Notes: generated from the letters alone by a model not told the origin. 64,000 bases of DNA from Blastocatellia bacterium (GCA_963765495.1 CAVXWP010000001.1:288001-352000), one strand, 5' to 3'. Shown: positions 10,826-28,352, numbered from the stretch's first letter. Numbers and translations: made by a program.

Positions 10826-10832
<7 letters not shown>

Positions 10833-13321
10833 TTGGCGTCTTTCGCGCACCGGAATCCCGTCTTATCATAACCCTTGTCGGCGTCAACGAATCCGCGATA
10901 AGAGGCATCGTGCTGTTTGTTGCCGTCGTATGCGCCCCCGCGTATCACGCGATAAGTCACGCTGCGCTGCAACTCGGGTTTGGGTGTAGGGCTTTTTGCA
11001 TAGAGATTGAATTTACTGGCAGTCCATTCCCAGACATTGCCTATCATATCGAGTGCGCCAACCGGGCTTGCACCGCCGGGGTACTGGCCCACTTCTTTTA
11101 TACCGTCGGTGTCAATATTGGCGAGGCTCTTGTCCCAATCGTTTCCCCACGGGTATATGCGACCATCCGCGCCACGAGCCGCCGCTTCCCACTCTTCTTC
11201 GGTGGGCAGCCGCTTGCCTGCCCACGCGGCATAATCGGCAGCATCCTTCCAGCTTAGGCCGGTTACAGGGAAATTATCCTGCCCTGCCTGATAATTATCG
11301 TTCTTCCAACCCTCGGGCGCGCGGTGCCCGGTCGCGTCAATAAACTTTTTATATGAGGCGTTGGTAACTTCGGTACGATCTATGTAAAAGGCTTTCAGAC
11401 TTACCATATGCTCAGGCTTTTCAAACTGATCGCCTTCATCGCGGCCTATCTTATAGGTTCCGCTTGCAACAAGCGCCATCCCTTCGGGCGCGGTCGGGGC
11501 CGTTGGAGTCGGAGCAGGCGGCGGAGCGGGTGATGTGGCAGGCACAGGCGGCGTCACTTCTGTAGTTTCAGTCCTGGGCGACCCGCCCGACAGATACCAC
11601 CAGCCCAGATAAACGGCTATGCAGATCATCACAACCCCGATTGCTATCGAAGCTATTGTCACGCTGCTTTTTGGGCTCGATGGCGGAGCCTCGCTCACGA
11701 TGATCCCGGGCGGTTCGTGCGCCGAATAAGGCGGGAGCGGTTGAGCCATTTGCTCGCGGTCATCCGAGGCGGCTTGCGCCGCCGACGTATCGATTACCTC
11801 GGTCTCATTGACGGGTATCGCCGCGTTGTCCGAGTGCGTATTAAACGGATCGGATTGATAAGGAGATTCGAATTGTGGTTCGGCGGGCGGAGGCACCAGG
11901 CCAAACGGGGCCGTGTGCACATCCTCAAAAGGCGTCTCAGAGACTATCATCGTAGGCGCGGTGTTTATTTCGGATTCGGCCTCTTCGGTTTCAATCGTTT
12001 CTGCCACCTCGTCTTCTGGTGCCTCGTCTTCTGGCGACTCGTCTTCTGCCGCCTCGCCGCTCTCAGGCGGCGGCGTCACTTCGGTCTCATAGACGAAAGG
12101 CGATTGCGACCGATCCTGTAAGAACTCATCGGGCAAAGCGCCCATCTGTATAGTGCCTCCGGGCAGATCGCCGCTTTCTTCCGGTATCGCTCCAAATTGC
12201 CCGGTTGCCGTATCGCTTTCGGCCTCGCCTGACAAGGGGGGTTCAAGTTGAAAGGCTTCGAGCGTCAACGCGGAAGACGAGACCCGGTTTGCCTCCGGTG
12301 TCAATTCGGAAGAATATGGGTCGCTTTTGGCCTCCGGGTGCTCGACCGGATTCGTAGTTCGTCGCTGAAAGTTTGCGGTTGGAGACGGCATCTCGCTTTC
12401 CGGGCCGACTCCCGGCAGCATCTCGGTTTCGGCGCTTACTGAAATTCTCTCTATTTCGACCGTCTCCGGTGCGAAAGGAAGAGCCTGATCTTGATCCGGC
12501 GCGGCATCAGGTGTGTCAATCGCAGATGCATTGAACGCGGGCGGTTCCGGCGCAGGCGTCTCGGACGCAAACATCTCAGGCGTGGGCGATTCATGCGAGG
12601 GAGGCTCAAAGGCAGGCGCTTCAAAAGCGATGGTTTCATTTTCGAAGACCGCTTCATTCTGCGGGGGCGAACTCATCCCCTCGGTCGAGATCAATGCGGC
12701 GGCCCGCTCCCTTTCAGACAGATGCTCCGGAAGATCGGGCAGCGTGCTCTGCCGGGCTTGCACCTCCGCATCGCCTCTCGTATCGCGATTCGAATCGGTA
12801 TCGTCAAACGACGCTCCACAAACGCGACACGTTCTTGAGCCAAGCGGGCTGAAGCTCGTGCACTGATTGCAAAGCAATGATGATGCGCCAAAGGGGCTTG
12901 CCGGCGCAGAGACGGACGCGCCGCAGGATTTGCAATACTTCGAGCCGGTATCGAGGTTTTCGCCGCAGGACGGGCATTGCGCGATCAGCGCCGTGGAACT
13001 CCGGGCGCTCTCGTTGCCCTTCCTGGCCCCCGATTTTTTAGTGAAATCGTGACCGCATCGAGTGCAGTTGAGCTCCCCTGTCGCATTCGAAGCGCCGCAA
13101 AGCGGGCACGAAACGCCTACGGACTCGCGCTTGCCGGAGACGAGATTGATGCCGCAGGATTTGCAGAAAGACCATTTCGGCTGTACCGCAGCCAGACAGG
13201 ATGGACAGGTATAGAGCTCGCTTGTGATGCGCGGGCGCTCAACCAGTCCCTGGCCGCACCATTTGCAATAGCGCAACCCTACGGGGAAGTCTAAATTGCA
13301 TTTCTCACAATACATATTCAA
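10826..13321 (-). CDS. Zinc-ribbon repeats + acidic linker + TM + FGE/sulfatase-modifying (CLec-fold) domain protein
   Basis: Ten CxxC motifs in the first ~170 aa; TM IAIGVVMICIAVYLGWWYL; RLPTEEEWEAAARG, DMIGNVWEW, RGG, GFRC. Confidence 0.88.
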
Positions 13322-13490: not shown

Positions 13491-14516
13491 TTACATTTCG
13501 CGTTCGACGATGAAGCGAGGCACGCTGAGCAGGGCTGTGCGGTACTGGGAGGGCGGAAAGATTGAGAGCGATTCGACCGCTTCATCGGCGTAGCGCCGGG
13601 CTTCGGCAAGGGCGCGGGCCAGAGTGCCTCGCTCGTCGATTAGATCGAGCACCTGTTTACGACTGACGGTTTCGAACCCGCGTTCGCGCATGACGGTTTC
13701 GATCATTTCACGATGCTGCTCGTTGCCTTCTTCCATAAGGTATATCAACGGCAGCGTCAGTTTGCCTTCGCGCAGGTCGTTGGCGACCGGCTTGCCGAGC
13801 TTGGCTTCGGTGGAGATGAAATCGAGCACATCATCTATCAACTGAAAAGCGACGCCGACCGACAGCCCGTAACGAGCCATCGCGCGGCGCTCTTCCGAGG
13901 TAGCGCCTGCCACTATCGCGCCTACTTCGGCACAGGTGCTGAACATGTAAGCGGTCTTGCGGCGGACGATTTCGAGATGTTCGGCCTCGGTGATCCGGCT
14001 GTTGCCGATCAGAGATAACTGGATGATCTCGCCTTCGACCATAAGGCGCGTCATCCCTGTCAGCGTTTCGAGTATGTCGAAATTGCGTTCGACCAGGCTC
14101 ATCTCGAAGGCCGTCATATAGAGCCAGTCGCCCATCAAGACCGTGATGTCGTTGCCCCATTTGGCATTGGCCGAAGCTCGTCCGCGCCGCACGCGCGCTT
14201 CATCAATTATGTCGTCGTGCATGAGCGTAGCCATATGGAGCATCTCCATCACGGCGGCCATGCGAATCGTCGAGGGCGTTGCCTGCCCCGATATGAGTCT
14301 GCTTGCGAGCGCGACCATCGCCGGGCGCACGCGCTTGCCCCCGCCCTCCTGCAGATAGCGGGCAACGGATGCAACCACCGGAGAGGCTTCGGCAACCTGG
14401 CGCTCGAACTCGTCTTCAACGAGCTTCAAATCATTCAGCACGAGAGAGAATATCTCTTCCGGCGTCATCTCGGCGTCTTCGGTCTTTGGCTCATCCATAT
14501 GCAAGCGACTATGCAT
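13491..14516 (-). CDS. Polyprenyl (IspB-like) diphosphate synthase
   Basis: GGKRVRP, HDDIID (FARM), RRG, KTA, FQLIDDVLD (SARM); AAGGAG SD upstream. Confidence 0.93.
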   Translation of the reverse strand: MHSRLHMDEPKTEDAEMTPEEIFSLVLNDLKLVEDEFERQVAEASPVVASVARYLQEGGGKRVRPAMVALASRLISGQATPSTIRMAAVMEMLHMATLMHDDIIDEARVRRGRASANAKWGNDITVLMGDWLYMTAFEMSLVERNFDILETLTGMTRLMVEGEIIQLSLIGNSRITEAEHLEIVRRKTAYMFSTCAEVGAIVAGATSEERRAMARYGLSVGVAFQLIDDVLDFISTEAKLGKPVANDLREGKLTLPLIYLMEEGNEQHREMIETVMRERGFETVSRKQVLDLIDERGTLARALAEARRYADEAVESLSIFPPSQYRTALLSVPRFIVEREM

Positions 14517-14734
14517 CAACTCAGATTTCTCCTTGAAATGCGACCGCCAATCATACCAAACCGGGCGTTGAGAAGGCAAAAGGCAAAACGAAAAGATATA
14601 CGCGTCGTATGCACGCGTCCCGCTTCCCTGAGCCGGTCTCTTCCTGTTATAGCCATTTGGTGCGTAACGCGCAACGCACAATCGCGTTTTCAATCCCGGG
14701 TCCGAGCCTCAATCGCAGCCCGTCGCGCCCTGTG

Positions 14735-14762
14735 TTGACAAGGTGAGAAAAACTGTTAGTTT
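14735..14762 (+). promoter_or_regulatory. Sigma70-type promoter for the pspA-like operon
   Basis: TTGACA 14735-14740; TGn-TAGTTT 14754-14762. Confidence 0.55.
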
Positions 14763-14908: not shown

Positions 14909-15667
14909 ATGTGGAATAGACTCAAACGATTATTCCGTTCGATCTTCGGCGGGATGATCGAAAGGGCCGAAGACCCTGAACTGATACTCCAGCAGACCAT
15001 CCGCGACATGCGCGAGAAGGTCCCTGAGATGCAGAACAATGTCGCGCAGGTAATGGCCACCGAGAAGCTGCTGCAAAGAGAGATAACCACGCTCGAACGC
15101 GAAGTGATCGAGTATGACGCCAAGATCAAGGCCGCAATCAAGCAGGGCCGCGACGACATCGCCAAGACCTATATAACCGCTCTGCAGGAAAAACAGATCG
15201 CCCTCGACCGCTCGAAGCAACAACTTGAGAGCGCGAAGGCCGCAGCCAGCCAGGCCAAAAAGTTTCTCGACAACTACATTCTCCAGGTGAAGAAACGCAC
15301 CGCCGAGGCCCAGCAACTCGTAAACGAGGCGCGAGCCGCCAAGATGCAGGAACAGCTCTCACAGACCATGGCATCGTTTCAGATCGGTGACGACGCGGGC
15401 ACCTTTGGCGAGATGCGCGAGCGCATCCAGCGCCGGGCCGCTGCCGCCGAAGCGCGGATGGACCTTGCGACCGGCGGTATAGAGTCTACGATTCAGGACA
15501 TAGAGCGCGAGTCGCTGAATATACAGGTCGAAGATACATTGTCTGCCTACAAACGGCAGATGGGTGTAGGGCAGGATACGTCGCCTATGCCTGCGCCTCC
15601 TTCCATAGAGAGCGACAGCGCGGGCAAATCGCTCGGCCCTTCCGAGCGGTCGAAGACGCTTGAATAG
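14909..15667 (+). CDS. PspA/IM30 (ESCRT-III superfamily) protein
   Basis: Amphipathic N-terminus MWNRLKRLFRS, EDPELILQQTIRDM, AIKQGRDDIAK, long coiled coil; AGGAGG SD. Confidence 0.92.
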   Translation: MWNRLKRLFRSIFGGMIERAEDPELILQQTIRDMREKVPEMQNNVAQVMATEKLLQREITTLEREVIEYDAKIKAAIKQGRDDIAKTYITALQEKQIALDRSKQQLESAKAAASQAKKFLDNYILQVKKRTAEAQQLVNEARAAKMQEQLSQTMASFQIGDDAGTFGEMRERIQRRAAAAEARMDLATGGIESTIQDIERESLNIQVEDTLSAYKRQMGVGQDTSPMPAPPSIESDSAGKSLGPSERSKTLE

Positions 15668-15744
15668 AAGCGGTGAATGCTGAATGATGAACGGGGGGGA
15701 TTAAATCACCTCATTCATCATTATCATGTTGAAAGCGGGTTTTT

Positions 15745-16587
15745 ATGCCTGAAAAGGTGAGCTATCTCAAAGAGGCGGCCAAAGAGCCGCTCAACATCTG
15801 GGCTATGGTAGGCTTTGTCGCTTCCTCGGTCTTTGCGGCCACGACGGATTTCTCGATGTTTGCCTGGGTTCCGCTTGCGGCAGGCGCGGCTGCCGAATCG
15901 CTCTATCTGGCGAGCATCCCGGCTACGAGCGCATACCGCAGACTTGTAGATCGCCGGGTGCGCCGCCGTGAATTTGCAGAGCGAGGCCGCAAGCGCGAAG
16001 AACTGATAAAGGCGTTCGACCCTCGCGAGCGCGAGGCGGTCGAATACCTGCGCTGGATGAAGAATCAGATATATCAAAACTATCAAAAATTTGCCCACGT
16101 CGCCGATGTGCCTGATAGCATCTCGCGGCTTGAAAACATCTGGGAATCCTATGTGGACCTGCTCGATGTTTATCGCCGCCGCAAGAATCATCTGCGCTCG
16201 ATAAATCGCCAGACGATTCAAAACCAGACCCAGCAGGCCGAGCGCGCCATGCAGTCGGCCCCCGACCCCGACACTCGCAGACTCTATGAAAAGAATATCG
16301 AAATACTTCAGAAGCGGCTCCAGACCTATAACGACATCGAGCGGTCGATGAAACGCGTAGAGGCTCAACTTCAATCAATCGAGAGTTTCTTCGGGCTCGT
16401 AAACGATCAGGTGGTAACGATGCCTACGCCCGATCACATTCTGTCGCTGGACTTCGAATCCCTGCTCTCTTCTATAGAGATCACCAAGGAGATATTGGAA
16501 GAGACGGCTCCCGTTCTCAGCCAGTTGGACGCCGCCGAGCGCACTTCGCAAGACCACATGCGGCCACCTGTGGCCCAGAGACAATAG
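15745..16587 (+). CDS. Membrane-anchored coiled-coil protein (2 N-terminal hydrophobic segments)
   Basis: Hydrophobic residues ~17-58, then R/E/Q-rich helices; co-oriented between pspA-like and AAA genes. Confidence 0.8.
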   Translation: MPEKVSYLKEAAKEPLNIWAMVGFVASSVFAATTDFSMFAWVPLAAGAAAESLYLASIPATSAYRRLVDRRVRRREFAERGRKREELIKAFDPREREAVEYLRWMKNQIYQNYQKFAHVADVPDSISRLENIWESYVDLLDVYRRRKNHLRSINRQTIQNQTQQAERAMQSAPDPDTRRLYEKNIEILQKRLQTYNDIERSMKRVEAQLQSIESFFGLVNDQVVTMPTPDHILSLDFESLLSSIEITKEILEETAPVLSQLDAAERTSQDHMRPPVAQRQ

Positions 16588-16669
16588 CCGGGGGCCGGGG
16601 GTCAGGGCAGAACGACGAAGTCTTGCTCTCCGTGTCACCGGCCCCCGACCCCTGGTCCCCGGCCCCCGA
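16588..16669. repeat. 7-mer-periodic inverted repeat (GGGGCCG / CCCCGGC)
   Basis: Begins right after TAG and ends about 6 nt before the AAA gene ATG. Confidence 0.8.
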
Positions 16670-16675
16670 TTAGCT

Positions 16676-18382
16676 ATGTCAAGAACAAAACTACTCATTG
16701 ACGATATAGATCAATTGCCCGCGTGGGCTGCGCGAATGGCGCGCAAATACTATGCGGGAGAGGCGAGCCACTTCCTGATATACAACAACATTTATGATCT
16801 GGTGCGCGCCGGGAGCGATTACGTCAGCCTGCTCAATTATCTGCAACGCGAGCTTGTGGGCACAAAACATCTTGTCACCTACAATCGCAGCGAGGGGATA
16901 AAATTCGGATCAACCGAAGCCGAGCGCGCCTTTCTCGCGCAGTTGCGCGTGGCCGACCCGCTTGCGGGCCGCGACGCCGTAAAGCAACTCCCCAGAGACC
17001 CCGCCCGCGCAATACCGCTCATCGAACATTTTTTGCTCTACGGCGATCAGGTCGCGGTCATAATCAATTTCATGGATACGATCATCCCGGCAGGCGACAT
17101 CAGCTATATGTCGGGCGAAGACCGCACAAATCTGGTTGCCTTTCAGCGATGGATAACCAGCTCTCGATTGCTCAAGAAAGACAACATAGTCATACTGATC
17201 GCCGAAAGCGTAGCCGAGGTTCACCCGCGAATACGCCAGAATTCGCGGCTCGCCGCCATAGACATCCCCTACCCGGATGACAGGGAGCGGCTCGAATTCA
17301 TCAAGCACCTGAGCGAGCAATTGCCGCAGTTCAAGACCGATGTCGGCGATGAACAGACGGCGTTGCTCACATCGGGGCTGAATCGCGTGCATTTGAATTC
17401 GCTCATACGCAGCGCCGCCGTGGAAAACGAACCGATGACGGCCGACATGATTCGCCAGAAGAAGAAAGAATTGATCGAAGCCGAATGCGTGGGTCTTGTC
17501 GAATTCGTACACCCCAGATTCGGGCTCGATTCCGTGGGCGGCATGAAGAAGGCTAAGGATTTCCTGCGAGGCATAGCCGAAACCATACGCGAAGGAATAA
17601 CCGAAGAAGCGCCTATGGGCATTTTGATAAGCGGGCCTGTGGGGACGGGCAAGACATTTCTTGCCGAATGCTTTGCCCACGATTGCGGTTTGAACGTGGT
17701 CGCCTTCAAGAACTTCCGCGAGCGATGGGTGGGCTCGAGCGAAGCAAACCTTGAAAAGATATTAAACCTCCTGCAAACGCTTGCGCCCATTGTCGTACTG
17801 GTTGACGAGGCGGACGCGACTCTCGGCTCGCGCGAAACGGGCGGAGACTCCGGCGTAGATGCGCGAATATTTTCCAAACTAGCGGCGTCGATGGGCGATA
17901 CGAGAAACCGGGGCCGCATACTCTGGATACTGATGACCAGCCGCCCCGACCTGCTTCCCATAGACCTGAAGCGCCAGGGCCGGGCCGAAGAGCACATCTC
18001 GCTCTTCTATCCCGACACGGAAGAAGACCGCCTCGCCATAATCGAAGCGATGCTTCGCAAGCATAAGATCAATGTGGAGGTCGAAGACTGGTCCCCGATC
18101 ACAAAGAGCCAGTTGACGCTTTCGGGAGCCGACATCGAATCCATGTTGATCCGCGCACGCAGGGTCAGCCGCAATGCCGGGCGAAAGATCGTCACACACC
18201 CGGATGTCGAGCAGGTGGCAAACGAGTTCAGCCCGGCTCGCGACGAACTGGCCATCGAATACCAGGTGCTGGTTGCTGCTCGCGAGGCCACATCGCGCGA
18301 GATGGTCCCGGAAAAGTATCGTCACCTCTCTCCCGTAGAACTGAGCCAGCGCATCGAAGAATTGCGTTCGTTCATACGATAA
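16676..18382 (+). CDS. Classical-clade AAA+ ATPase with degenerate N-terminal module
   Basis: Walker A GPVGTGKT, pore loop RWVG, Walker B VLVDEAD, SRH SRPDLLPIDLKRQGR; N-terminal half has no Walker A but keeps an AAA-like IPYPD...R lid. Confidence 0.9.
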   Translation: MSRTKLLIDDIDQLPAWAARMARKYYAGEASHFLIYNNIYDLVRAGSDYVSLLNYLQRELVGTKHLVTYNRSEGIKFGSTEAERAFLAQLRVADPLAGRDAVKQLPRDPARAIPLIEHFLLYGDQVAVIINFMDTIIPAGDISYMSGEDRTNLVAFQRWITSSRLLKKDNIVILIAESVAEVHPRIRQNSRLAAIDIPYPDDRERLEFIKHLSEQLPQFKTDVGDEQTALLTSGLNRVHLNSLIRSAAVENEPMTADMIRQKKKELIEAECVGLVEFVHPRFGLDSVGGMKKAKDFLRGIAETIREGITEEAPMGILISGPVGTGKTFLAECFAHDCGLNVVAFKNFRERWVGSSEANLEKILNLLQTLAPIVVLVDEADATLGSRETGGDSGVDARIFSKLAASMGDTRNRGRILWILMTSRPDLLPIDLKRQGRAEEHISLFYPDTEEDRLAIIEAMLRKHKINVEVEDWSPITKSQLTLSGADIESMLIRARRVSRNAGRKIVTHPDVEQVANEFSPARDELAIEYQVLVAAREATSREMVPEKYRHLSPVELSQRIEELRSFIR

Positions 18383-18419
18383 TCTGAGATATCAAATCTC
18401 AAATCCCTTCGCCAGACCT

Positions 18420-18809
18420 ATGCCTGATGCAAAATTAAAGCTTTCGCTCCTTTCGGGCGCGTTTGCCGTTTGCAGATTGAAGCGCGACAGGGCGGTTCCC
18501 GATTGGGCAACGGCTGGCGACTTTTTCTCGGTCACGCGAACGCGTGATGAGCTTTCAATCGTTTGCCCTGAAAGCGTCGTGCCCGAAGATGTTACTTGCG
18601 AAAAAGGATGGCGATGTTTGAAAGTCCGGGGCACGCTCGATTTCGCTCTGGTCGGCATCCTGGCTTCGATGGTTGTGCCGCTTGCCGAAGCCGGCATCAG
18701 CGTGTTTGTCGTCTCTACTTATGATACTGACTACCTGCTCTTGAAAGAGCGAGACCTCGAAAAAGCCGCTCGCTCGCTTGCGGAGGCCGGGCATACGGTT
18801 GACCTCTGA
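18420..18809 (+). CDS. ACT-domain protein (CASTOR-like ACT)
   Basis: SVTRTRDELSIVC, GTLDFALVGILA, LAEAGISVFVVSTYDTDYLL. Confidence 0.88.
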   Translation: MPDAKLKLSLLSGAFAVCRLKRDRAVPDWATAGDFFSVTRTRDELSIVCPESVVPEDVTCEKGWRCLKVRGTLDFALVGILASMVVPLAEAGISVFVVSTYDTDYLLLKERDLEKAARSLAEAGHTVDL

Positions 18810-18841: not shown

Positions 18842-18871
18842 TTGACAATGCTCGGAGCCGGGCATTATAGT
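18842..18871 (+). promoter_or_regulatory. Sigma70-type promoter, probably leaderless hslV transcript
   Basis: TTGACA-18 nt-TATAGT, ATG 8 nt downstream, no SD. Confidence 0.6.
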
Positions 18872-18879
18872 CGCCATTT

Positions 18880-19443
18880 ATGGGGAAGAATCATTTTCAC
18901 CACGAAACACGACCGCGAGTCCGCAGCACAACCATCCTGTCTGTGCGCAGAGACGATCACGTAGCGGTGGCAGGGGACGGGCAGGTCACCTTCGATAAAA
19001 CGGTTATGAAATCGGGTGCGCGCAAGGTCCGCCGCCTCTTCAACGATAAGATAATCGCGGGATTTGCGGGCTCTACGGCCGATGCTTTCACCCTCTTCAC
19101 AAGGTTTGAAGCCAAGCTGGAACAGTATCACGGCCAGTTGCAACGCGCTGCCGTCGAGATGGGCAAAGAGTGGCGAACCGATAAGTATCTGCGCCATCTC
19201 GAAGCGCTGCTGATCGTTGCCGACGAAAAATCATCGCTTCTGATTTCAGGCGGCGGTGATGTGATTGAACCCGACGACGGAGTGCTGGCAATAGGTTCCG
19301 GCGGCCCATACGCTACGGCGGCGGCCCGCGCCCTGATTCGCCATACCCAGTTACCCGCAAGAGAGATCGTCAAAGAAGCCATGAAGATCGCGGGCGAAAT
19401 CTGCATCTATACAAACTCTGAACTTGTGATAGAAGAGATTTGA
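18880..19443 (+). CDS. hslV: ATP-dependent protease peptidase subunit HslV
   Basis: TTILSV (N-terminal Thr after a short propeptide), [27 protein letters not shown]. Confidence 0.96.
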
Positions 19444-23123: not shown

Positions 23124-26100
23124 ATGAACAGGACATTTTTCAGCATTTCCCGAGGCCCGGCTCTCTTAACATTAAACCTTTTGCTGCTGGTCGCTTTCAC
23201 GCTGGCCCAGTCTGTCGGAGCCAGCGCCGACGATAATTTTACGATCAAATCTTCGGTTATAGCGGGCGGCGGCGGCTCGAGCACGGGCGGCGCACTGGCC
23301 ATTGACGGTACAATTGGTCAAGCCATGGTTGGTATATCAAGCGCAGGAAATTTCTCTGTCGCGGGCGGTTTCTGGAATACACTTACACAAATTCCCGCAG
23401 TCAGCAATTCGATATCAGGGACGATCTCTTATTGCATCGACAACTCAAAGAAAGTCCCCAACGCCACCGTCCAGACTACCAGCGGTTCCCCTTCCGCTTC
23501 CACTACTACTAACGCCTCCGGCTTCTATCAACTCGATAACCTCGGCACTGGCCCTTACACCGTTGCTCCTTCCAAAACCGGTGCCGTCTCCGGCATCTCT
23601 GCTCAGGATATCGGTATCCTCCGCCGCCTCGCCGCTGGCATCGATACCCCCACTCCCTGTCAATCCATCGCTGGCGATACAGATAACAACGGCTCGCTCG
23701 GCGCCCAGGACATCGGCTTCCTTCGAAGATTTGTCGCTCAACTTACTACCACTGGCATCACTGGCTCCTGGAAATTCTCTCCCGCCTCCAAAACCTATCT
23801 TTCCCTCGTCTCTAATCAAACAAACCAGGATTACGATGCCTTGCTGATCGGAGATGTTGACGGCAACTGGACCCCCGCTGCTCCTGATCCTGCTTCATTT
23901 CAGAAGAGTCAGGCTCCTTCGGCCACTAACCTTGCCCTCTCTTTGCCCAGTGTCGTTGCTCCTCCCGGTTCTACTGATGTCTCTATCCCGGTCATGGTTA
24001 ACGGCACTCTCACAAACGGCGATTTCGTTTTGGGCTACACAATCGAGATCAGTTTCGATCCCAGCGTGCTGGTTCCACATTCGCCCTCATTCAACACGAC
24101 AGGGACGGTTTCATCGACCGGGGTCGTCACAGAGAACACGGGTGTGTCGGGGAGGCTCCGACTTGTGGTCGATTTCCAGAATCCGCTGATATTCACAGGG
24201 CAGCAGACGCTGATAATATTGAGGTTCGATGTGGTAGGGACACAGGGACAGATGAGCGGGCTCAACTGGTTCTTCACGGAATTTGGGAGCGGCCCACCTG
24301 CCGTCACCACCACGACTACAAACGGCAACTTCACCGTCACAAGCCCCACTGCCGTAAAAGTCGATGCCTTCAAGGCCACGGGCTTTGACAAGGGCGTATA
24401 TCTCCAGTGGCAGACCGGGTTTGAATCTACTAACCTCGGCTTCAACATCTATCGCCAGCAGGCGGGCAAACTCTCTCTTGTTACGCCTGAAATATTGGCC
24501 GGGTCGGCGCTTTTGACAGGTGACACGCCCTTGCTTGCCGGGCGGAAATATTCGTGGTGGGATAATTCACCCGATAGTAAACAGGACGCGCTCTATTATC
24601 TGGAAGACATTGACCTCAACGGCACAAGGAGCCTGCACGGGCCGATAGTTGCAACCAGAGCATCAGGCAATCCGCCTGCTGGCTCTCGGGCCGAGTTGTT
24701 GAGCCGGATGGGCAGAGGCAAGGCTACAATCAGCGACTACGTCGCTTCCTCCTCCCCTGGCAGCGCCCAACTGGCAACCGTTTCCTCAAAGAAAGGATTA
24801 CAAAACTCCAGGCGAGAGACAGTGCCTGTTGATCTGGCGACCTCCTCTGCCATAAAGATGTGGATAGGCAATAGCGGGCTCTATCGCCTCACTCAGCCGC
24901 AACTGCTGAGCGCCGGCCTCGATTCCGGGATAGATCCGCGACTCTTGCAGATGTATGTCGACGGGCAGGAGGTTCCAATCCTTGTCACTGGCCAGGATGA
25001 CGGAAGATTTGATGCCGCGGACACAGTGGAATTCTACGCTTCGGCAATCGACAGCCCGTTCACCTCGAAGCGGGTCTACTGGCTTGTGGCAGGGACAGTG
25101 GCGGGAAGACGGATAACAAAGGTGACGAGTCCCGGGAAGGGGCAGAGCAACGCTAGTTTTACCTCGACCCTGGAGCGACGAGACAAGACGATCTACTTTT
25201 CGAGTTTGAGGAACGGGGATGAGGAGAACTTCTTTGGGCCGGTCATAGCCTCGCAGGAAGTCGATCAGTCGATAGATGTGAAAGATATGGCAGCGGGAGG
25301 AGGAACTGGGGCAGTGCTTGAAGTGGGATTACAGGGAGTAAGCGCGGTCAACCATCGAGTAAAAGTGAGGTTGAACGGGACGGAGTTGGGAGAGGTAAAT
25401 TACAGTGGGCAGGGAGCAGGAGTAGGGAGATTCACACTCTCAAGCGGGCAACTGGTGGAAGGAAGAAACGACATCAAGATGGAGGGGGTGGGAACAGGAG
25501 GAGATGTGAGCCTGGCCGAGTATGTGAGAGTGAGCTATGAGAGGAGGTACAAGGCGGAAGGAGATGAGTTGAGATTCCGAGCAGAGGGGGGCCAGGAGGT
25601 AAAGATAGGAGGGTTCACAAGCGAACGGATACGAGTATTTGATGTAACGGAGGAAGGGAATGTAGTGGAGATAGGAGGAGCGATAGAAGAGAGCGGGAAC
25701 GGGTATGAGATAGGGATCAAGGTAGGAGGAGCAGGAGAGAGAGAGATGATGGCGATAGAGGAAGGGGAGGTGAGAGAGGTAGGAGAGATGAGAAAGAACG
25801 AGGCGTCGAAGCTGAGAGCGACGAGCCAGGGAGCGGACCTGTTGATAATCACGACGGGAGAGATGGGAGGAAGTCTGGAAGGGTTGAAGGCGCTGAGACA
25901 GAGTCAGGGGATGGCGGTAGCGATAGTGAAGGTGGAAGACATCTATGACGAGTTCAGCCAGGGAGAGAAGACGCCGTATGCGATAAGAGAATTTCTGATA
26001 TATGCGAAGAGGAACTGGAAGAGGAAGCCGGGATATGTGTTGATGGGAGGGGATGCGAGTTACGACCCGAAGAATTATCTGGGAGCGGGGGAATGGGATC

Positions 26101-26861
26101 TGGTGCCGACGAAGTTGGTGGACACGGCGTATCTGGAGACGGCCTCAGATGAATGGATGGTGGACGAGGATGGAGACGGGATAGGAGAGATGGCGATAGG
26201 GCGACTGCCGATAAGGAGCGAGGAAGAAGGGATGAGGATGGTAGGGAAGATAATGAGTTATGAGAGAGGAGTATCGAGGAGGAGTGTGTTATTGGTATCG
26301 GATGCGAATGATGGATACAACTTTGAGCAGGCGAACGAAGAGTTGAAGGGGATGATACCGAAGGGGACGAGGATAGAAGAGGTAAAGAGGGGGCAGATGA
26401 GCGAGGAGGAAGCGAGGGCGAGGGTGATAGGAGGGATAAACGAAGGGCAGGCGATAGTGAGTTATGCAGGGCACGGGTCGGTGGATATATGGAGAGGAGA
26501 GATATTGAGGAGCGAGGATGGAGAGATAATGAGGAATGGTAATCAGTTGAGTGTATTTCTGATGATGACGTGTTTGAACGGATATTTTGAGGATCCGATG
26601 TTGGAGAGTTTGGGAGAGGCGATGATGAAGGCGGAGAGGGGAGGAGCGGTAGCGGTATGGGGGTCGAGCGGGATGTGTGAAGCGGGAGAGCAGGCGGCAG
26701 TGAGCAAGGAGATGATGAGGGAGCTAAACAGTGTGGAGGGGTTGACGAAGAAGAAGGTGACGATAGGAGAAGCGGCGAGGAGGGCGAAGGGGAGGATAGG
26801 AGATGTGGATGTAAGGAGGACGTACGTGTTGTTGGGAGACCCGACTATGCGCCTCAGATAA
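23124..26861 (+). CDS. Secreted C25 (gingipain-like) cysteine peptidase with dockerin-like and cohesin-like modules
   Basis: Signal peptide; duplicated AQDIG.LRR with GDTDNNG; cohesin-like segment; YDEFS, GDASYDP, IGRLP, YAGHG (His), MTCLNG (Cys), LLGDP. Confidence 0.88.
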   Translation: MNRTFFSISRGPALLTLNLLLLVAFTLAQSVGASADDNFTIKSSVIAGGGGSSTGGALAIDGTIGQAMVGISSAGNFSVAGGFWNTLTQIPAVSNSISGTISYCIDNSKKVPNATVQTTSGSPSASTTTNASGFYQLDNLGTGPYTVAPSKTGAVSGISAQDIGILRRLAAGIDTPTPCQSIAGDTDNNGSLGAQDIGFLRRFVAQLTTTGITGSWKFSPASKTYLSLVSNQTNQDYDALLIGDVDGNWTPAAPDPASFQKSQAPSATNLALSLPSVVAPPGSTDVSIPVMVNGTLTNGDFVLGYTIEISFDPSVLVPHSPSFNTTGTVSSTGVVTENTGVSGRLRLVVDFQNPLIFTGQQTLIILRFDVVGTQGQMSGLNWFFTEFGSGPPAVTTTTTNGNFTVTSPTAVKVDAFKATGFDKGVYLQWQTGFESTNLGFNIYRQQAGKLSLVTPEILAGSALLTGDTPLLAGRKYSWWDNSPDSKQDALYYLEDIDLNGTRSLHGPIVATRASGNPPAGSRAELLSRMGRGKATISDYVASSSPGSAQLATVSSKKGLQNSRRETVPVDLATSSAIKMWIGNSGLYRLTQPQLLSAGLDSGIDPRLLQMYVDGQEVPILVTGQDDGRFDAADTVEFYASAIDSPFTSKRVYWLVAGTVAGRRITKVTSPGKGQSNASFTSTLERRDKTIYFSSLRNGDEENFFGPVIASQEVDQSIDVKDMAAGGGTGAVLEVGLQGVSAVNHRVKVRLNGTELGEVNYSGQGAGVGRFTLSSGQLVEGRNDIKMEGVGTGGDVSLAEYVRVSYERRYKAEGDELRFRAEGGQEVKIGGFTSERIRVFDVTEEGNVVEIGGAIEESGNGYEIGIKVGGAGEREMMAIEEGEVREVGEMRKNEASKLRATSQGADLLIITTGEMGGSLEGLKALRQSQGMAVAIVKVEDIYDEFSQGEKTPYAIREFLIYAKRNWKRKPGYVLMGGDASYDPKNYLGAGEWDLVPTKLVDTAYLETASDEWMVDEDGDGIGEMAIGRLPIRSEEEGMRMVGKIMSYERGVSRRSVLLVSDANDGYNFEQANEELKGMIPKGTRIEEVKRGQMSEEEARARVIGGINEGQAIVSYAGHGSVDIWRGEILRSEDGEIMRNGNQLSVFLMMTCLNGYFEDPMLESLGEAMMKAERGGAVAVWGSSGMCEAGEQAAVSKEMMRELNSVEGLTKKKVTIGEAARRAKGRIGDVDVRRTYVLLGDPTMRLR

Positions 26862-26888
26862 CGCAGAATGCCGCAATTAAATTGGAGA

Positions 26889-26923
26889 GGGGCTGATGAG
26901 TGGTATATCAACTCATCAGCCCC
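26889..26923. terminator. Probable bidirectional terminator
   Basis: Perfect 13-bp stem GGGGCTGATGAGT / ACTCATCAGCCCC between convergent genes. Confidence 0.75.
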
Positions 26924-26951
26924 TTTCTAATGAAAGTAAATCCGACTCCTG

Positions 26952-28352
26952 CTAGGGCCGGATGTTGTAATACCTGATCTTGCTGTTGAGCGTAGTCGTA
27001 TTCATTCCCAAAAGTTTTGCGGCGCGCGACTGATGGCCGCCTGTGATTTCCAGTGCGCGACGGATCAACTCGATCTGAAAGCGATTCACTTCATCATAGA
27101 AAGAGACGCCGCGCGACAAATCCATCTGCGATGCCAGGGTTTGCCCGCCCGTCTGCGCGGCGGCTTTTTGAGGATTGAGCACTTCTTCGCGCAAATCGCT
27201 CCGCTCGATGATCGAGCCGCGCGCTATTATAACGGCGCGCTCGATAACGTTTTCAAGCTCGCGCACATTGCCCGGCCAGTTGTACGCTTCAAGCAGCGAC
27301 AGGACCTCCGGGCTGATCTGATCGTATAGTTGCCTCGCGTTTTCCGCCGAGTACTTGCGAATGAAATGTTTTGCGAGCGGAAGAATATCCTCCCGGCGAT
27401 CACGCAAAGGAGGAAGGCTGATCTGAATCACGTTTAGCCTGTAATAGAGGTCTTCACGGAAAGCGCCTTCATCAACCGCCTGTTTAAGGTCTACATTGGT
27501 CGCGGTAATAACGCGCACATCCACCTGCCGACGAGTGGTGTCGCCTAAGGGTGTGAAATCGCGTTCCTGAATTACTCTGAGAAGTTTCGCCTGCGTCTCC
27601 ATCGAGATAGTGCCCATCTCGTCGAGGAAGATCGAGCCGCCGTCGGCTACCTCGAAGTATCCCTTTTTGGCCGCCACCGCGCCTGTGAATGCGCCGCGAA
27701 CGTGACCGAACAACTCCGATTCGAGCAGTTCGGTTGGGAGGTTCGCGGAGTTTACGGTTACAAAAGGCTTGTCGGCTCGCTGGCTGTGATTATGAATGGC
27801 GCGGGCGATCAATTCCTTGCCCGTACCGCTTTCGCCCGTGATGAGCACCGTCGAACGCGCGGGCGCTACCTGCTCGACGAACGAGAGAATATCGAGCATC
27901 TTGTTGCTGCGCGCTATTATCTCTTTAGCGGCGGTGCTGCGTTTGAGCGTATGTCTGAGCACGTGGCGCTCTTCGTCCTTGCGTCGCCGTCTGATGCCAG
28001 CCGCGATCAGCCCGAGGATTTCTCTGTTATCGAAAGGCTTCTTTATACAGTTGAACGCGCCGCGCTGCCACGCCGATATTGCCGTATCGAAGGTGGCGTA
28101 AGCGGTGATCATTATGATCACTGCTTCGGAGTCGAGTTTTAGTATTTCTTCGAGTGTCCTGAGCCCGCCCATGCCGGGCATCGAGACATCGAGCAAGACT
28201 ACGTCAACGGGCCGTTGCTGAAATTTATCTATCCCCTCTTCTCCCGTGCGTGCAAGGTCTACCTGATAACCTTCTCCCGTGAGCAGGCTTTCAAGCACAT
28301 CGCGCATAACTTCCTCGTCGTCCACGACAAGGATATTCTCTTTTTTTGCCAT
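26952..28352 (-). CDS. Sigma54-dependent response regulator (NtrC/AtoC family)
   Basis: Receiver ILVVDDE...LLDVSMP; GESGTGKE; GAFTGA; WPGNVREL; Fis-type HTH. Confidence 0.95.
   Translation of the reverse strand: MAKKENILVVDDEEVMRDVLESLLTGEGYQVDLARTGEEGIDKFQQRPVDVVLLDVSMPGMGGLRTLEEILKLDSEAVIIMITAYATFDTAISAWQRGAFNCIKKPFDNREILGLIAAGIRRRRKDEERHVLRHTLKRSTAAKEIIARSNKMLDILSFVEQVAPARSTVLITGESGTGKELIARAIHNHSQRADKPFVTVNSANLPTELLESELFGHVRGAFTGAVAAKKGYFEVADGGSIFLDEMGTISMETQAKLLRVIQERDFTPLGDTTRRQVDVRVITATNVDLKQAVDEGAFREDLYYRLNVIQISLPPLRDRREDILPLAKHFIRKYSAENARQLYDQISPEVLSLLEAYNWPGNVRELENVIERAVIIARGSIIERSDLREEVLNPQKAAAQTGGQTLASQMDLSRGVSFYDEVNRFQIELIRRALEITGGHQSRAAKLLGMNTTTLNSKIRYYNIRP

Follow-up and report, generated by a model that had tools for sequence, protein, structure and literature searches.

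A compact operon of PspA, a helical partner and a tandem AAA ATPase in a Blastocatellia bacterium, with a possible role in PspA polymer disassembly

In this paper we analysed a stretch of 64,000 nucleotides from a soil bacterium of the Blastocatellia, phylum Acidobacteriota (GCA_963765495.1 CAVXWP010000001.1:288001-352000), here called the window, and describe a group of its genes that encodes the PspA/IM30 protein PspA, a helical protein that we call g2 and a tandem ATPase of the AAA family. The locus represents a widespread bacterial PspA module in its compact form with three genes. PspA, g2 and the ATPase are a conserved and co-occurring set, and a functional link between them is well supported. 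Sequence comparison marks an extended C-terminal tail of PspA as a hallmark of this system. The ATPase might thread and disassemble the PspA polymer and so do for PspA what Vps4 does for ESCRT-III; this is an argument from analogy, and we consider the chances for and against it to be balanced.

The core features, in window coordinates, are:

14909..15667, plus strand: pspA, encoding a PspA/IM30 protein of the ESCRT-III superfamily with 252 residues (PF04012, E 3.4e-30)
15566..15664, plus strand: C-terminal tail of PspA (residues 220-252), with the conserved peptide KSLGP and a linker rich in Pro, Ala and Ser
15745..16587, plus strand: g2, encoding a helical protein of 280 residues without a Pfam family (AlphaFold2 model, hydropathy and homologue search)
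16676..18382, plus strand: gene of the tandem (type II) classical AAA ATPase with 568 residues (PF00004, motifs and AlphaFold2 model)

Conservation of the gene set and features of its proteins

The order PspA-g2-ATPase is kept in seven of the eight close Blastocatellia loci that have upstream sequence. A sequence-only reading of the window had proposed a system of polymer, membrane adaptor and disassembly ATPase, and had staked it partly on the trio being syntenic elsewhere. The trio is indeed syntenic in these close loci, and it also co-occurs across the phylum. For the phylum we used an even sample of 151 Acidobacteriota genomes and counted the ATPase at E<=1e-40. Matches were found in 31 genomes for the ATPase, in 46 for PspA and in 34 for g2, and 24 genomes have all three together. 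PspA is present in 27 of the 31 genomes with the ATPase compared to 19 of the 120 without it, and the corresponding numbers for g2 are 26/31 and 8/120. Furthermore, PspA is found in nearly all genomes that have g2 (32/34). Related genomes are not independent of each other, so these counts overstate the statistical strength of the co-occurrence. In five genomes (G089, G101, G029, G045 and G057) the three genes lie on different contigs and yet all are present. The retention of all three genes when they are unlinked supports a shared function independently of linkage.

The gene neighbourhoods of 30 ATPase genes of other Acidobacteriota, outside the window, give a similar picture of the module. 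Of these phylum loci 16 have g2, which adjoins the ATPase gene in 13 of them, the stop and start codons often overlapping, and PspA is found in 17, either adjacent or about 3.5-4 kb upstream. We additionally fetched 80 metagenome loci; upstream sequence of 2.5 kb or more is available for 38. Among these 38 loci PspA is present in 23, g2 in 17, both in 16 and either in 24. Twelve metagenome loci are direct dyads of PspA and the ATPase without g2.

Some operons of relatives contain insertions of small genes that are unrelated to the system. A 23S-rRNA-IVP family gene (L016 4199-4624) and a TonB_C-like gene (L015 7823-8839) are found between g2 and the ATPase gene, and a Uma2 endonuclease-like gene (L012 7854-8492) is found between the ATPase gene and a gene for an ACT domain protein. 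One locus labelled 'uncultured Clostridia bacterium' (L007, CAYXVU010000051.1) carries the operon with 80% ATPase identity and the same flanking genes, and its label looks wrong.

PspA of this locus matches PF04012 with 105.7 bits against a cut-off of 33.9, residues 2-217 covering model positions 3-217 of 220, and it is the sole PspA gene in the 7.3-Mb genome. We measured the PspA tail as the number of residues after the conserved G219. The extended tail that had been noticed from the sequence is clearly visible in this measure, with 33 residues here compared to 2-21 (median 7) in the seven PspAs from genomes with neither g2 nor the ATPase. In the 57 PspAs from loci or genomes with the ATPase or g2, a set that pools all other groups described below, the tail has 12-41 residues, and 23-41 in all except one. 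The peptide KSLGP occupies residues 240-244 (nucleotides 15626-15640). Its glycine G243, part of a K-x-[LIM]-G(-P) motif, is invariant in 17 system-linked PspAs with overall identities of 16-77%, while the preceding tail linker is variable. The new observation is that system-linked PspAs bear a tail of 23-41 residues which ends in a conserved K-x-L/I/M-G.

The form of the peptide differs between groups. The pattern [KR][ST][LIM]G is found in 15 of the 17 PspAs from metagenome loci with both g2 and the ATPase (tails of 23-41 residues), and in none of the twelve PspAs from the g2-less dyads (12-37 residues), none of the seven from a family, f3, that has g2 and no ATPase (24-41 residues) and none of the seven from genomes without either gene. 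The dyad tails start with KKPDA..EAAPFP and have QKLPE at their end in nine of the twelve cases. In four genomes with a paralogous ATPase type the tail has K/R-I-S-S in place of K-x-[LIM]-G, and in family f3 the motif is decayed, with one KQIG left.

The second protein, g2, has no Pfam or NCBIfam family, and Pfam also gave none for 74 members of the g2 family; its homologues form 510 clusters at 50% identity (E<=0.001). The AlphaFold2 model of g2 is all-helical with a pLDDT of 92.8. It shows two N-terminal hydrophobic helices (residues 15-33 and 42-60), the second of them followed by a very basic stretch, and then a long helical bundle. The helices are moderately hydrophobic, with a Kyte-Doolittle maximum of 1.46 over 19 residues, which falls under the classical threshold for transmembrane helices and thus leaves membrane insertion likely, though unproven. 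We think that g2 probably inserts in the membrane by an N-terminal hairpin, its long bundle being cytoplasmic. The description of this gene as a membrane coiled-coil gene in the sequence-only reading is therefore largely borne out by the all-helical model and its two moderately hydrophobic helices.

The same reading had suggested a search for a Snf7/PspA fold in g2, and at the level of sequence the outcome was negative. A search of the genome with the Pfam Snf7 model gave no match at g2 (E<=10), eleven diverse g2 members gave no match to the Snf7 and PspA models at the same threshold, and an hhalign comparison of the g2 family with the operon PspAs returned a probability of 4.7%. The lack of any detectable sequence similarity of g2 to Snf7 or PspA is a new observation. 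Fold searches listed only generic helical bundles and BAR and F-BAR domains, with best Z scores of 9.2-11.1, too low to be meaningful for helical proteins, and no PspA, Vipp1 or ESCRT-III chains were among the listed matches. A profile search of the PDB with g2 gave matches at chance level only. An ESM Atlas lead to PspM/Rv2743c (score 0.88) was not borne out by Pfam.

The cytoplasmic domain of g2 (about residues 76-258) also occurs without the hydrophobic helices (P0145, P0192 and P0162; E 7e-26 to 7e-15). There it is fused to TIR, at the N- or C-terminal side, or to an NB-ARC STAND NTPase, architectures that are typical of conflict or immunity proteins. The domain is therefore an autonomous module. 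The genome studied here also contains a second gene of the g2 family (L142 4726-5592 = G000:C5:11726-12592, minus strand; E 6e-28 against the profile of the family). Two genes of periplasmic solute-binding proteins, one of them fused to VWA, lie divergently next to it, in an echo of the solute-binding protein (SBP)-OmpA genes of some longer operons.

The third protein has a single Pfam AAA domain (PF00004, residues 316-442, E 5.6e-26). Its AlphaFold2 model (pLDDT 85.7) aligns with the D1-D2 part of p97, Cdc48 and Rix7 over about 550-600 columns (Foldseek E ~1e-22, TM-score up to 0.63), and as it superposes on both tiers of these proteins it is a type II, two-tier AAA ATPase. The layout comprises a D1-like module at about residues 30-280, an active D2 at about 290-500 and a conserved C-terminal helical extension at 505-568. 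The first module has HFLIYNNIYD (residues 32-41) at the position of the P-loop, and no P-loop. D2 has a Walker A motif GPVGTGKT (320-327), a pore loop RWVG (350-353), a Walker B motif VVLVDEAD (373-380) and a second region of homology KRQGR (432-436) with two arginines. In an alignment of 28 homologues with 24-78% identity, G320, G323, G325 and K326 of Walker A, D377 and E378 of Walker B, R348 and G353 of the pore loop, and R433 and R436 of the second region of homology are all invariant. D2 thus has the characteristics of the classical AAA clade, namely Walker A, Walker B, a pore loop 1 of the aromatic-hydrophobic-Gly type and the two arginines of the second region of homology. The tandem arrangement with a degenerate first and an active second module bearing a WVG pore loop, as read from the sequence, agrees with the p97-like fold and with these invariant motifs, and all motifs of a substrate-threading classical AAA are kept.

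We assigned the class of the ATPase by a ranking of model scores, by fold search and by ESM Atlas neighbours, and on this basis it is Cdc48-like and Ycf46-like and not a member of Vps4. No N-terminal Pfam family, including MIT, was found at E<=0.01, the protein beginning at the D1-like module, and there is no Pfam match to the Vps4_C domain. With the NF041006 CdvC model the protein reaches 47.5 bits, the cut-off being 650, and this is lower than with the Cdc48, PAN and FtsH models. The best similarities of the full protein are to the CDC48 D2, PAN and FtsH models, all far under the family cut-offs (TIGR01243 CDC48 with 102.2 bits against 802.65), and the best sequence matches are to Cdc48/p97 with E ~1e-43. 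The closest clusters in the ESM Atlas, with a score of 0.99, are of similar length, come from Spirochaetota and Myxococcota and are automatically named ycf46. The absence of MIT and Vps4_C and the low CdvC score speak against the ATPase being a specific relative of Vps4.

Possible modes of action

Our proposal starts from the genes, their motifs, fold class, synteny and co-occurrence and from the conservation of the tail, and extends these to membrane insertion of g2, protein contacts, threading and disassembly as conjectured steps. PspA would be a polymer of the ESCRT-III superfamily that coats and repairs the inner membrane. The hairpin-anchored g2 would be its partner, probably as a membrane receptor or nucleator. 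The ATPase may act as a hexameric two-tier unfoldase with a dead upper ring, the structural D1, and an active lower ring, and it could be recruited to the membrane via g2, via the conserved PspA tail peptide or via both. The D2 pore loops would then pull subunits of PspA, or of PspA and g2, leading to polymer disassembly and recycling. The motor in this scheme would be Cdc48/Ycf46-like and not a homologue of Vps4. A complex prediction of the ATPase (28 aligned sequences) with PspA residues 196-252 (17 aligned sequences) gave scores of 0.31, 0.36 and 0.16, the mark being 0.32; it was run without controls and is evidence neither way.

Several observations weigh against this scheme of PspA disassembly. 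An orthologue of the ATPase with 58% identity (L009) stands alone and is the exception among the eight close loci. More broadly, 13 of the 30 phylum loci and 14 of the 38 metagenome loci have the ATPase but no PspA or g2 that could be detected nearby. Family f3 keeps adjacent PspA and g2 genes between housekeeping genes and has no ATPase at E<=1e-40 in any of its seven genomes, which are 99-100% complete. The PspA-g2 pair without the ATPase is a new observation in this one family (7/7 genomes), and shows that the ATPase is dispensable for that pair; it suggests that g2 is PspA's own partner and that the motor is an optional addition. The operons of many relatives add an SBP-OmpA protein, a permease and an ABC ATPase, hinting at a task wider than the recycling of PspA. 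Finally, the terminal peptide of PspA varies by clade, with K-x-L/I/M-G in most g2 operons, QKLPE in nine of the twelve dyads and K/R-I-S-S in genomes with the paralogous ATPase. The peptide follows phylogeny and is therefore not assignable to the ATPase rather than to g2. The proposal of a polymer, a membrane adaptor and a disassembly ATPase is thus partly supported: the conserved, co-occurring trio and the unfoldase motifs hold up, the motor is dispensable for the PspA-g2 pair in family f3, and disassembly stays an analogy.

The loci in which the ATPase stands without PspA and g2 raise the question whether it might instead be a general unfoldase for extraction and quality control near the membrane, comparable to FtsH without the protease. 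It would then be tethered by g2 and merely co-regulated with PspA in an envelope-stress regulon, and its substrates would be damaged membrane proteins and not PspA. This would fit with g2 and the ATPase being the tightest gene pair, their stop and start codons overlapping or spaced by 4 nucleotides in ten loci, and with the nearest sequence relatives, the D2 of Cdc48/p97, PAN and FtsH, which are all general unfoldases. However, PspA is directly and translationally coupled to the ATPase without g2 in the twelve metagenome dyads and in L017, the association of PspA with ATPase-bearing genomes described above is not accounted for, and neither is the conservation of a system-specific PspA tail. 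We regard the general unfoldase as unlikely, although it deserves consideration.

Another possibility is suggested by the long form of the operon, in which the genes are arranged as PspA, SBP(NMT1/Phosphonate-bd)+OmpA, permease, ABC ATPase, g2 and AAA ATPase. This form is found in all five loci checked (L018, L021, L022, L023 and L033), with a separate permease in four of them and none matched in L033. The module could assemble or protect a trans-envelope machine for transport or anchoring made of the SBP-OmpA protein, permease and ABC ATPase, and the three-gene form would be a remnant that has lost the transporter. The same operons are described in the available text of Ravi et al. (2024), and the second g2 paralogue in the genome adjoins an SBP+VWA and an SBP gene. 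Against this, forms with PspA-g2-AAA or PspA-AAA and no transporter are common, as in seven of the eight close relatives and in L062-L082 among others, which suggests that the core functions without the transporter. We therefore find this explanation improbable, and we return to disassembly of the PspA polymer as the reading that we prefer.

Gene neighbourhood and regulation

The features that surround the three core genes are:

13491-14693, minus strand: polyprenyl synthetase gene, divergent neighbour upstream of pspA
14734..14762, plus strand: possible promoter read from the sequence, with a perfect -35 TTGACA (14734-14739) and a weak -10 TAGTTT at 17-nt spacing
18420..18809, plus strand: gene of a small ACT_7/A9CJY8-like protein with 129 residues (Pfam)
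18880-19443, same strand as the ATPase gene: hslV, about 500 bp 3' of the ATPase gene and without adjacent hslU

Between the polyprenyl synthetase gene and hslV there are four open reading frames on the same strand, pspA, g2, the ATPase gene and the ACT gene, with intergenic gaps of 77, 88 and 37 bp in that order. A terminator scan predicted no plus-strand terminator between the four. The ACT protein matches PF13840 (ACT_7, E 2.8e-21) and PF21631 (A9CJY8-like_N), and its gene starts 37 bp past the stop codon of the ATPase gene. It is probably co-transcribed with the ATPase gene in this genome, yet it is a variable neighbour and not part of the core. Among close relatives whose downstream sequence is long enough, an ACT gene lies 3' of the ATPase gene in two of nine genome loci and two of 14 metagenome loci; it does so too in one of the 30 phylum loci (L012, with the Uma2 gene in between), which are L003, L008, L012, L068 and L069 in total. 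The ACT gene, which had been counted with the operon in the sequence-only reading, can on these numbers be ruled out as a component of the system.

The next gene, hslV, raises the question whether the ATPase could be the unfoldase partner of the HslV peptidase in a protease comparable to Cdc48 with the proteasome, since hslV follows so closely on the same strand and has no hslU beside it. This we consider to have a very small chance of being true. An hslV gene is found beside the ATPase gene in none of the ten close, 30 phylum and 80 metagenome loci. The hslV gene of the window owns a strong promoter-like site (18842-18871, 11/12 matches), and a gene for hslU is present about 108 kb away. The C-terminus of the ATPase is ...SFIR and not an HbYX docking motif, which has a penultimate tyrosine. 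HslV as protease partner is thus effectively excluded by the fact that the two genes are never neighbours elsewhere. The hslU-like gene, the only one (G000:C1:414276-415611, outside the window), is split over two open frames that directly adjoin in their matches to the model (positions 1-253 and 251-441), so that a frameshift or an assembly error may be suspected.

The possible promoter of pspA sits in the 215-bp divergent intergenic region, and a GGAGG ribosome-binding site precedes the ATG of pspA. The promoter seen by the sequence-only reading is only partly convincing, as its -35 is perfect and its -10 is poor. TAGTTT is the best -10 at 17 nt, and a consensus promoter scan upstream of pspA called nothing. 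The statement that pspF, pspB and pspC are missing from the window likewise needs a qualification. Models of PspB and PspC have no match in the whole genome (97.9% complete, 7.3 Mb). The window does contain one sigma-54 activator (about 27420-27920, minus strand, in an open frame of 488 residues), which has no hallmark of PspF and no evident link to the psp genes. In the genome there are 31 sigma-54 activator genes, none of them adjoining psp genes.

Canonical PspA binds the AAA+ protein PspF, according to the available part of a 2025 review, and by this precedent the ATPase could be a PspF-like regulator that is sequestered by PspA and not a remodeller. It has no Sigma54_activat or HTH domain, however, and belongs to the classical clade with a second region of homology, a pore loop and a p97-like D1-D2 fold. 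There is also no sigma-54 promoter upstream of pspA (no matches, with 26 in the window as a whole against 26.9 expected by chance). Its domain content effectively excludes this reading, which we find hardly credible.

Further observations concern the rest of the window. A gene on the minus strand (10826-13321) encodes a protein of 831 residues with several zinc ribbons at the N-terminus, a long Pro/Glu-rich low-complexity region, a single hydrophobic segment and an FGE-sulfatase domain at the C-terminus. The gene is kept upstream of the operon in five of the ten close loci, and in L009 the same FGE domain is, as judged by eye, fused to a Ser/Thr-kinase-like N-terminus. At 24001-28000 the GC skew is +0.22 and +0.27 in two successive 2-kb bins, compared to about 0 elsewhere.

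Relation to known systems and significance

We compared the locus with the literature in PMC11237479, PMC7619361, PMC10936438 and PMC9239133, as far as their texts were available. The closest description is that of Ravi et al. (2024, mSystems, PMC11237479). The accessible parts of that paper report, in silico, an association of PspA with an ATPase of 'inactive AAA + classical AAA' and with a transmembrane helical protein, as well as long operon forms with an ABC ATPase, a permease and a PBPB+OmpA protein, and they independently propose the analogy to ESCRT and Vps4. Their operons share with ours the gene set, the ATPase with a dead N-terminal module and the long form seen in relatives of this locus; the difference is the compact three-gene form in Blastocatellia, the long form being absent from this window. 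The transmembrane partner is there called 'Snf7 homologs with a TM segment', a likeness that we could not reproduce for g2. The locus thus belongs to the computationally described neighbourhoods of PspA with an inactive AAA/classical AAA ATPase and its genomic novelty is low, as had been expected when the sequence alone was read and novelty was presumed to be functional. Since the genomic association is already published, the value of this family lies in the testing of function. Among the papers listed by our literature searches we found no experimental test of the association between PspA and the tandem ATPase, nor any link of Ycf46 to PspA or Vipp1.

The comparison with Vps4 and CdvC shows both likeness and difference. 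As in those systems, the gene of a classical-clade AAA whose pore loop is aromatic lies near a gene of the ESCRT-III superfamily, pspA being two genes upstream, and the C-terminal tail of the polymer is flexible and has a short conserved peptide at its end. The layout of this tail resembles the MIM-bearing tails that Vps4 recognises. In contrast to Vps4 and CdvC, the ATPase has two tiers instead of one, besides the missing MIT and Vps4_C domains and the low CdvC score. By analogy, the resemblance may therefore concern the mode of action and not membership, and a Vps4-like mechanism of the PspA-linked ATPase is plausible.

With Cdc48, p97 and VAT the ATPase shares its best sequence matches and its best structural matches over both tiers, but no N-terminal substrate or adaptor domain (double-psi-barrel) was detected, the P-loop of D1 is lost and the CDC48 score stays far below its cut-off. 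Ycf46, a cyanobacterial and plastid AAA of unknown mechanism, is related through the nearest ESM Atlas clusters, where the name is automatic and the neighbours are those of a language model only. Finally, the pairing of PspA with a small integral membrane partner is shared with the canonical Psp system (PspF-PspABC), LiaI and PspM/Rv2743c, whereas this genome has no PspB or PspC and no sigma-54 match upstream of pspA.

A bolder interpretation is that the operon encodes a true bacterial cycle of the ESCRT-III/Vps4 type that arose independently, with K-x-L/I/M-G-P at the end of the tail as a MIM-like peptide that would recruit PspA to, or feed it into, a hexamer derived from Cdc48/Ycf46, and with the hairpin-anchored g2, by its long BAR-like bundle, as the membrane nucleator that would set the site of polymer growth. 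This goes further than a functional analogy with Vps4, and we think it doubtful. If it were true, ATP-driven disassembly would not be an archaeal invention. In the available text of the 2025 review an ATPase like Vps4 is said to be one that 'appears absent in bacteria', a statement which would then need revision. The accessible part of a 2024 ESCRT survey confines systems of vps4 plus ESCRT-III to archaea and eukaryotes, and such an ATPase is not mentioned in the available part of PMC9239133.

How bacterial ESCRT-III-type polymers such as PspA and Vipp1 get taken apart is an open question, and the operon family described here provides a tractable candidate for the motor. The conserved tail peptide and the natural f3 lineage, which keeps PspA and g2 without the motor, are direct experimental handles on it.

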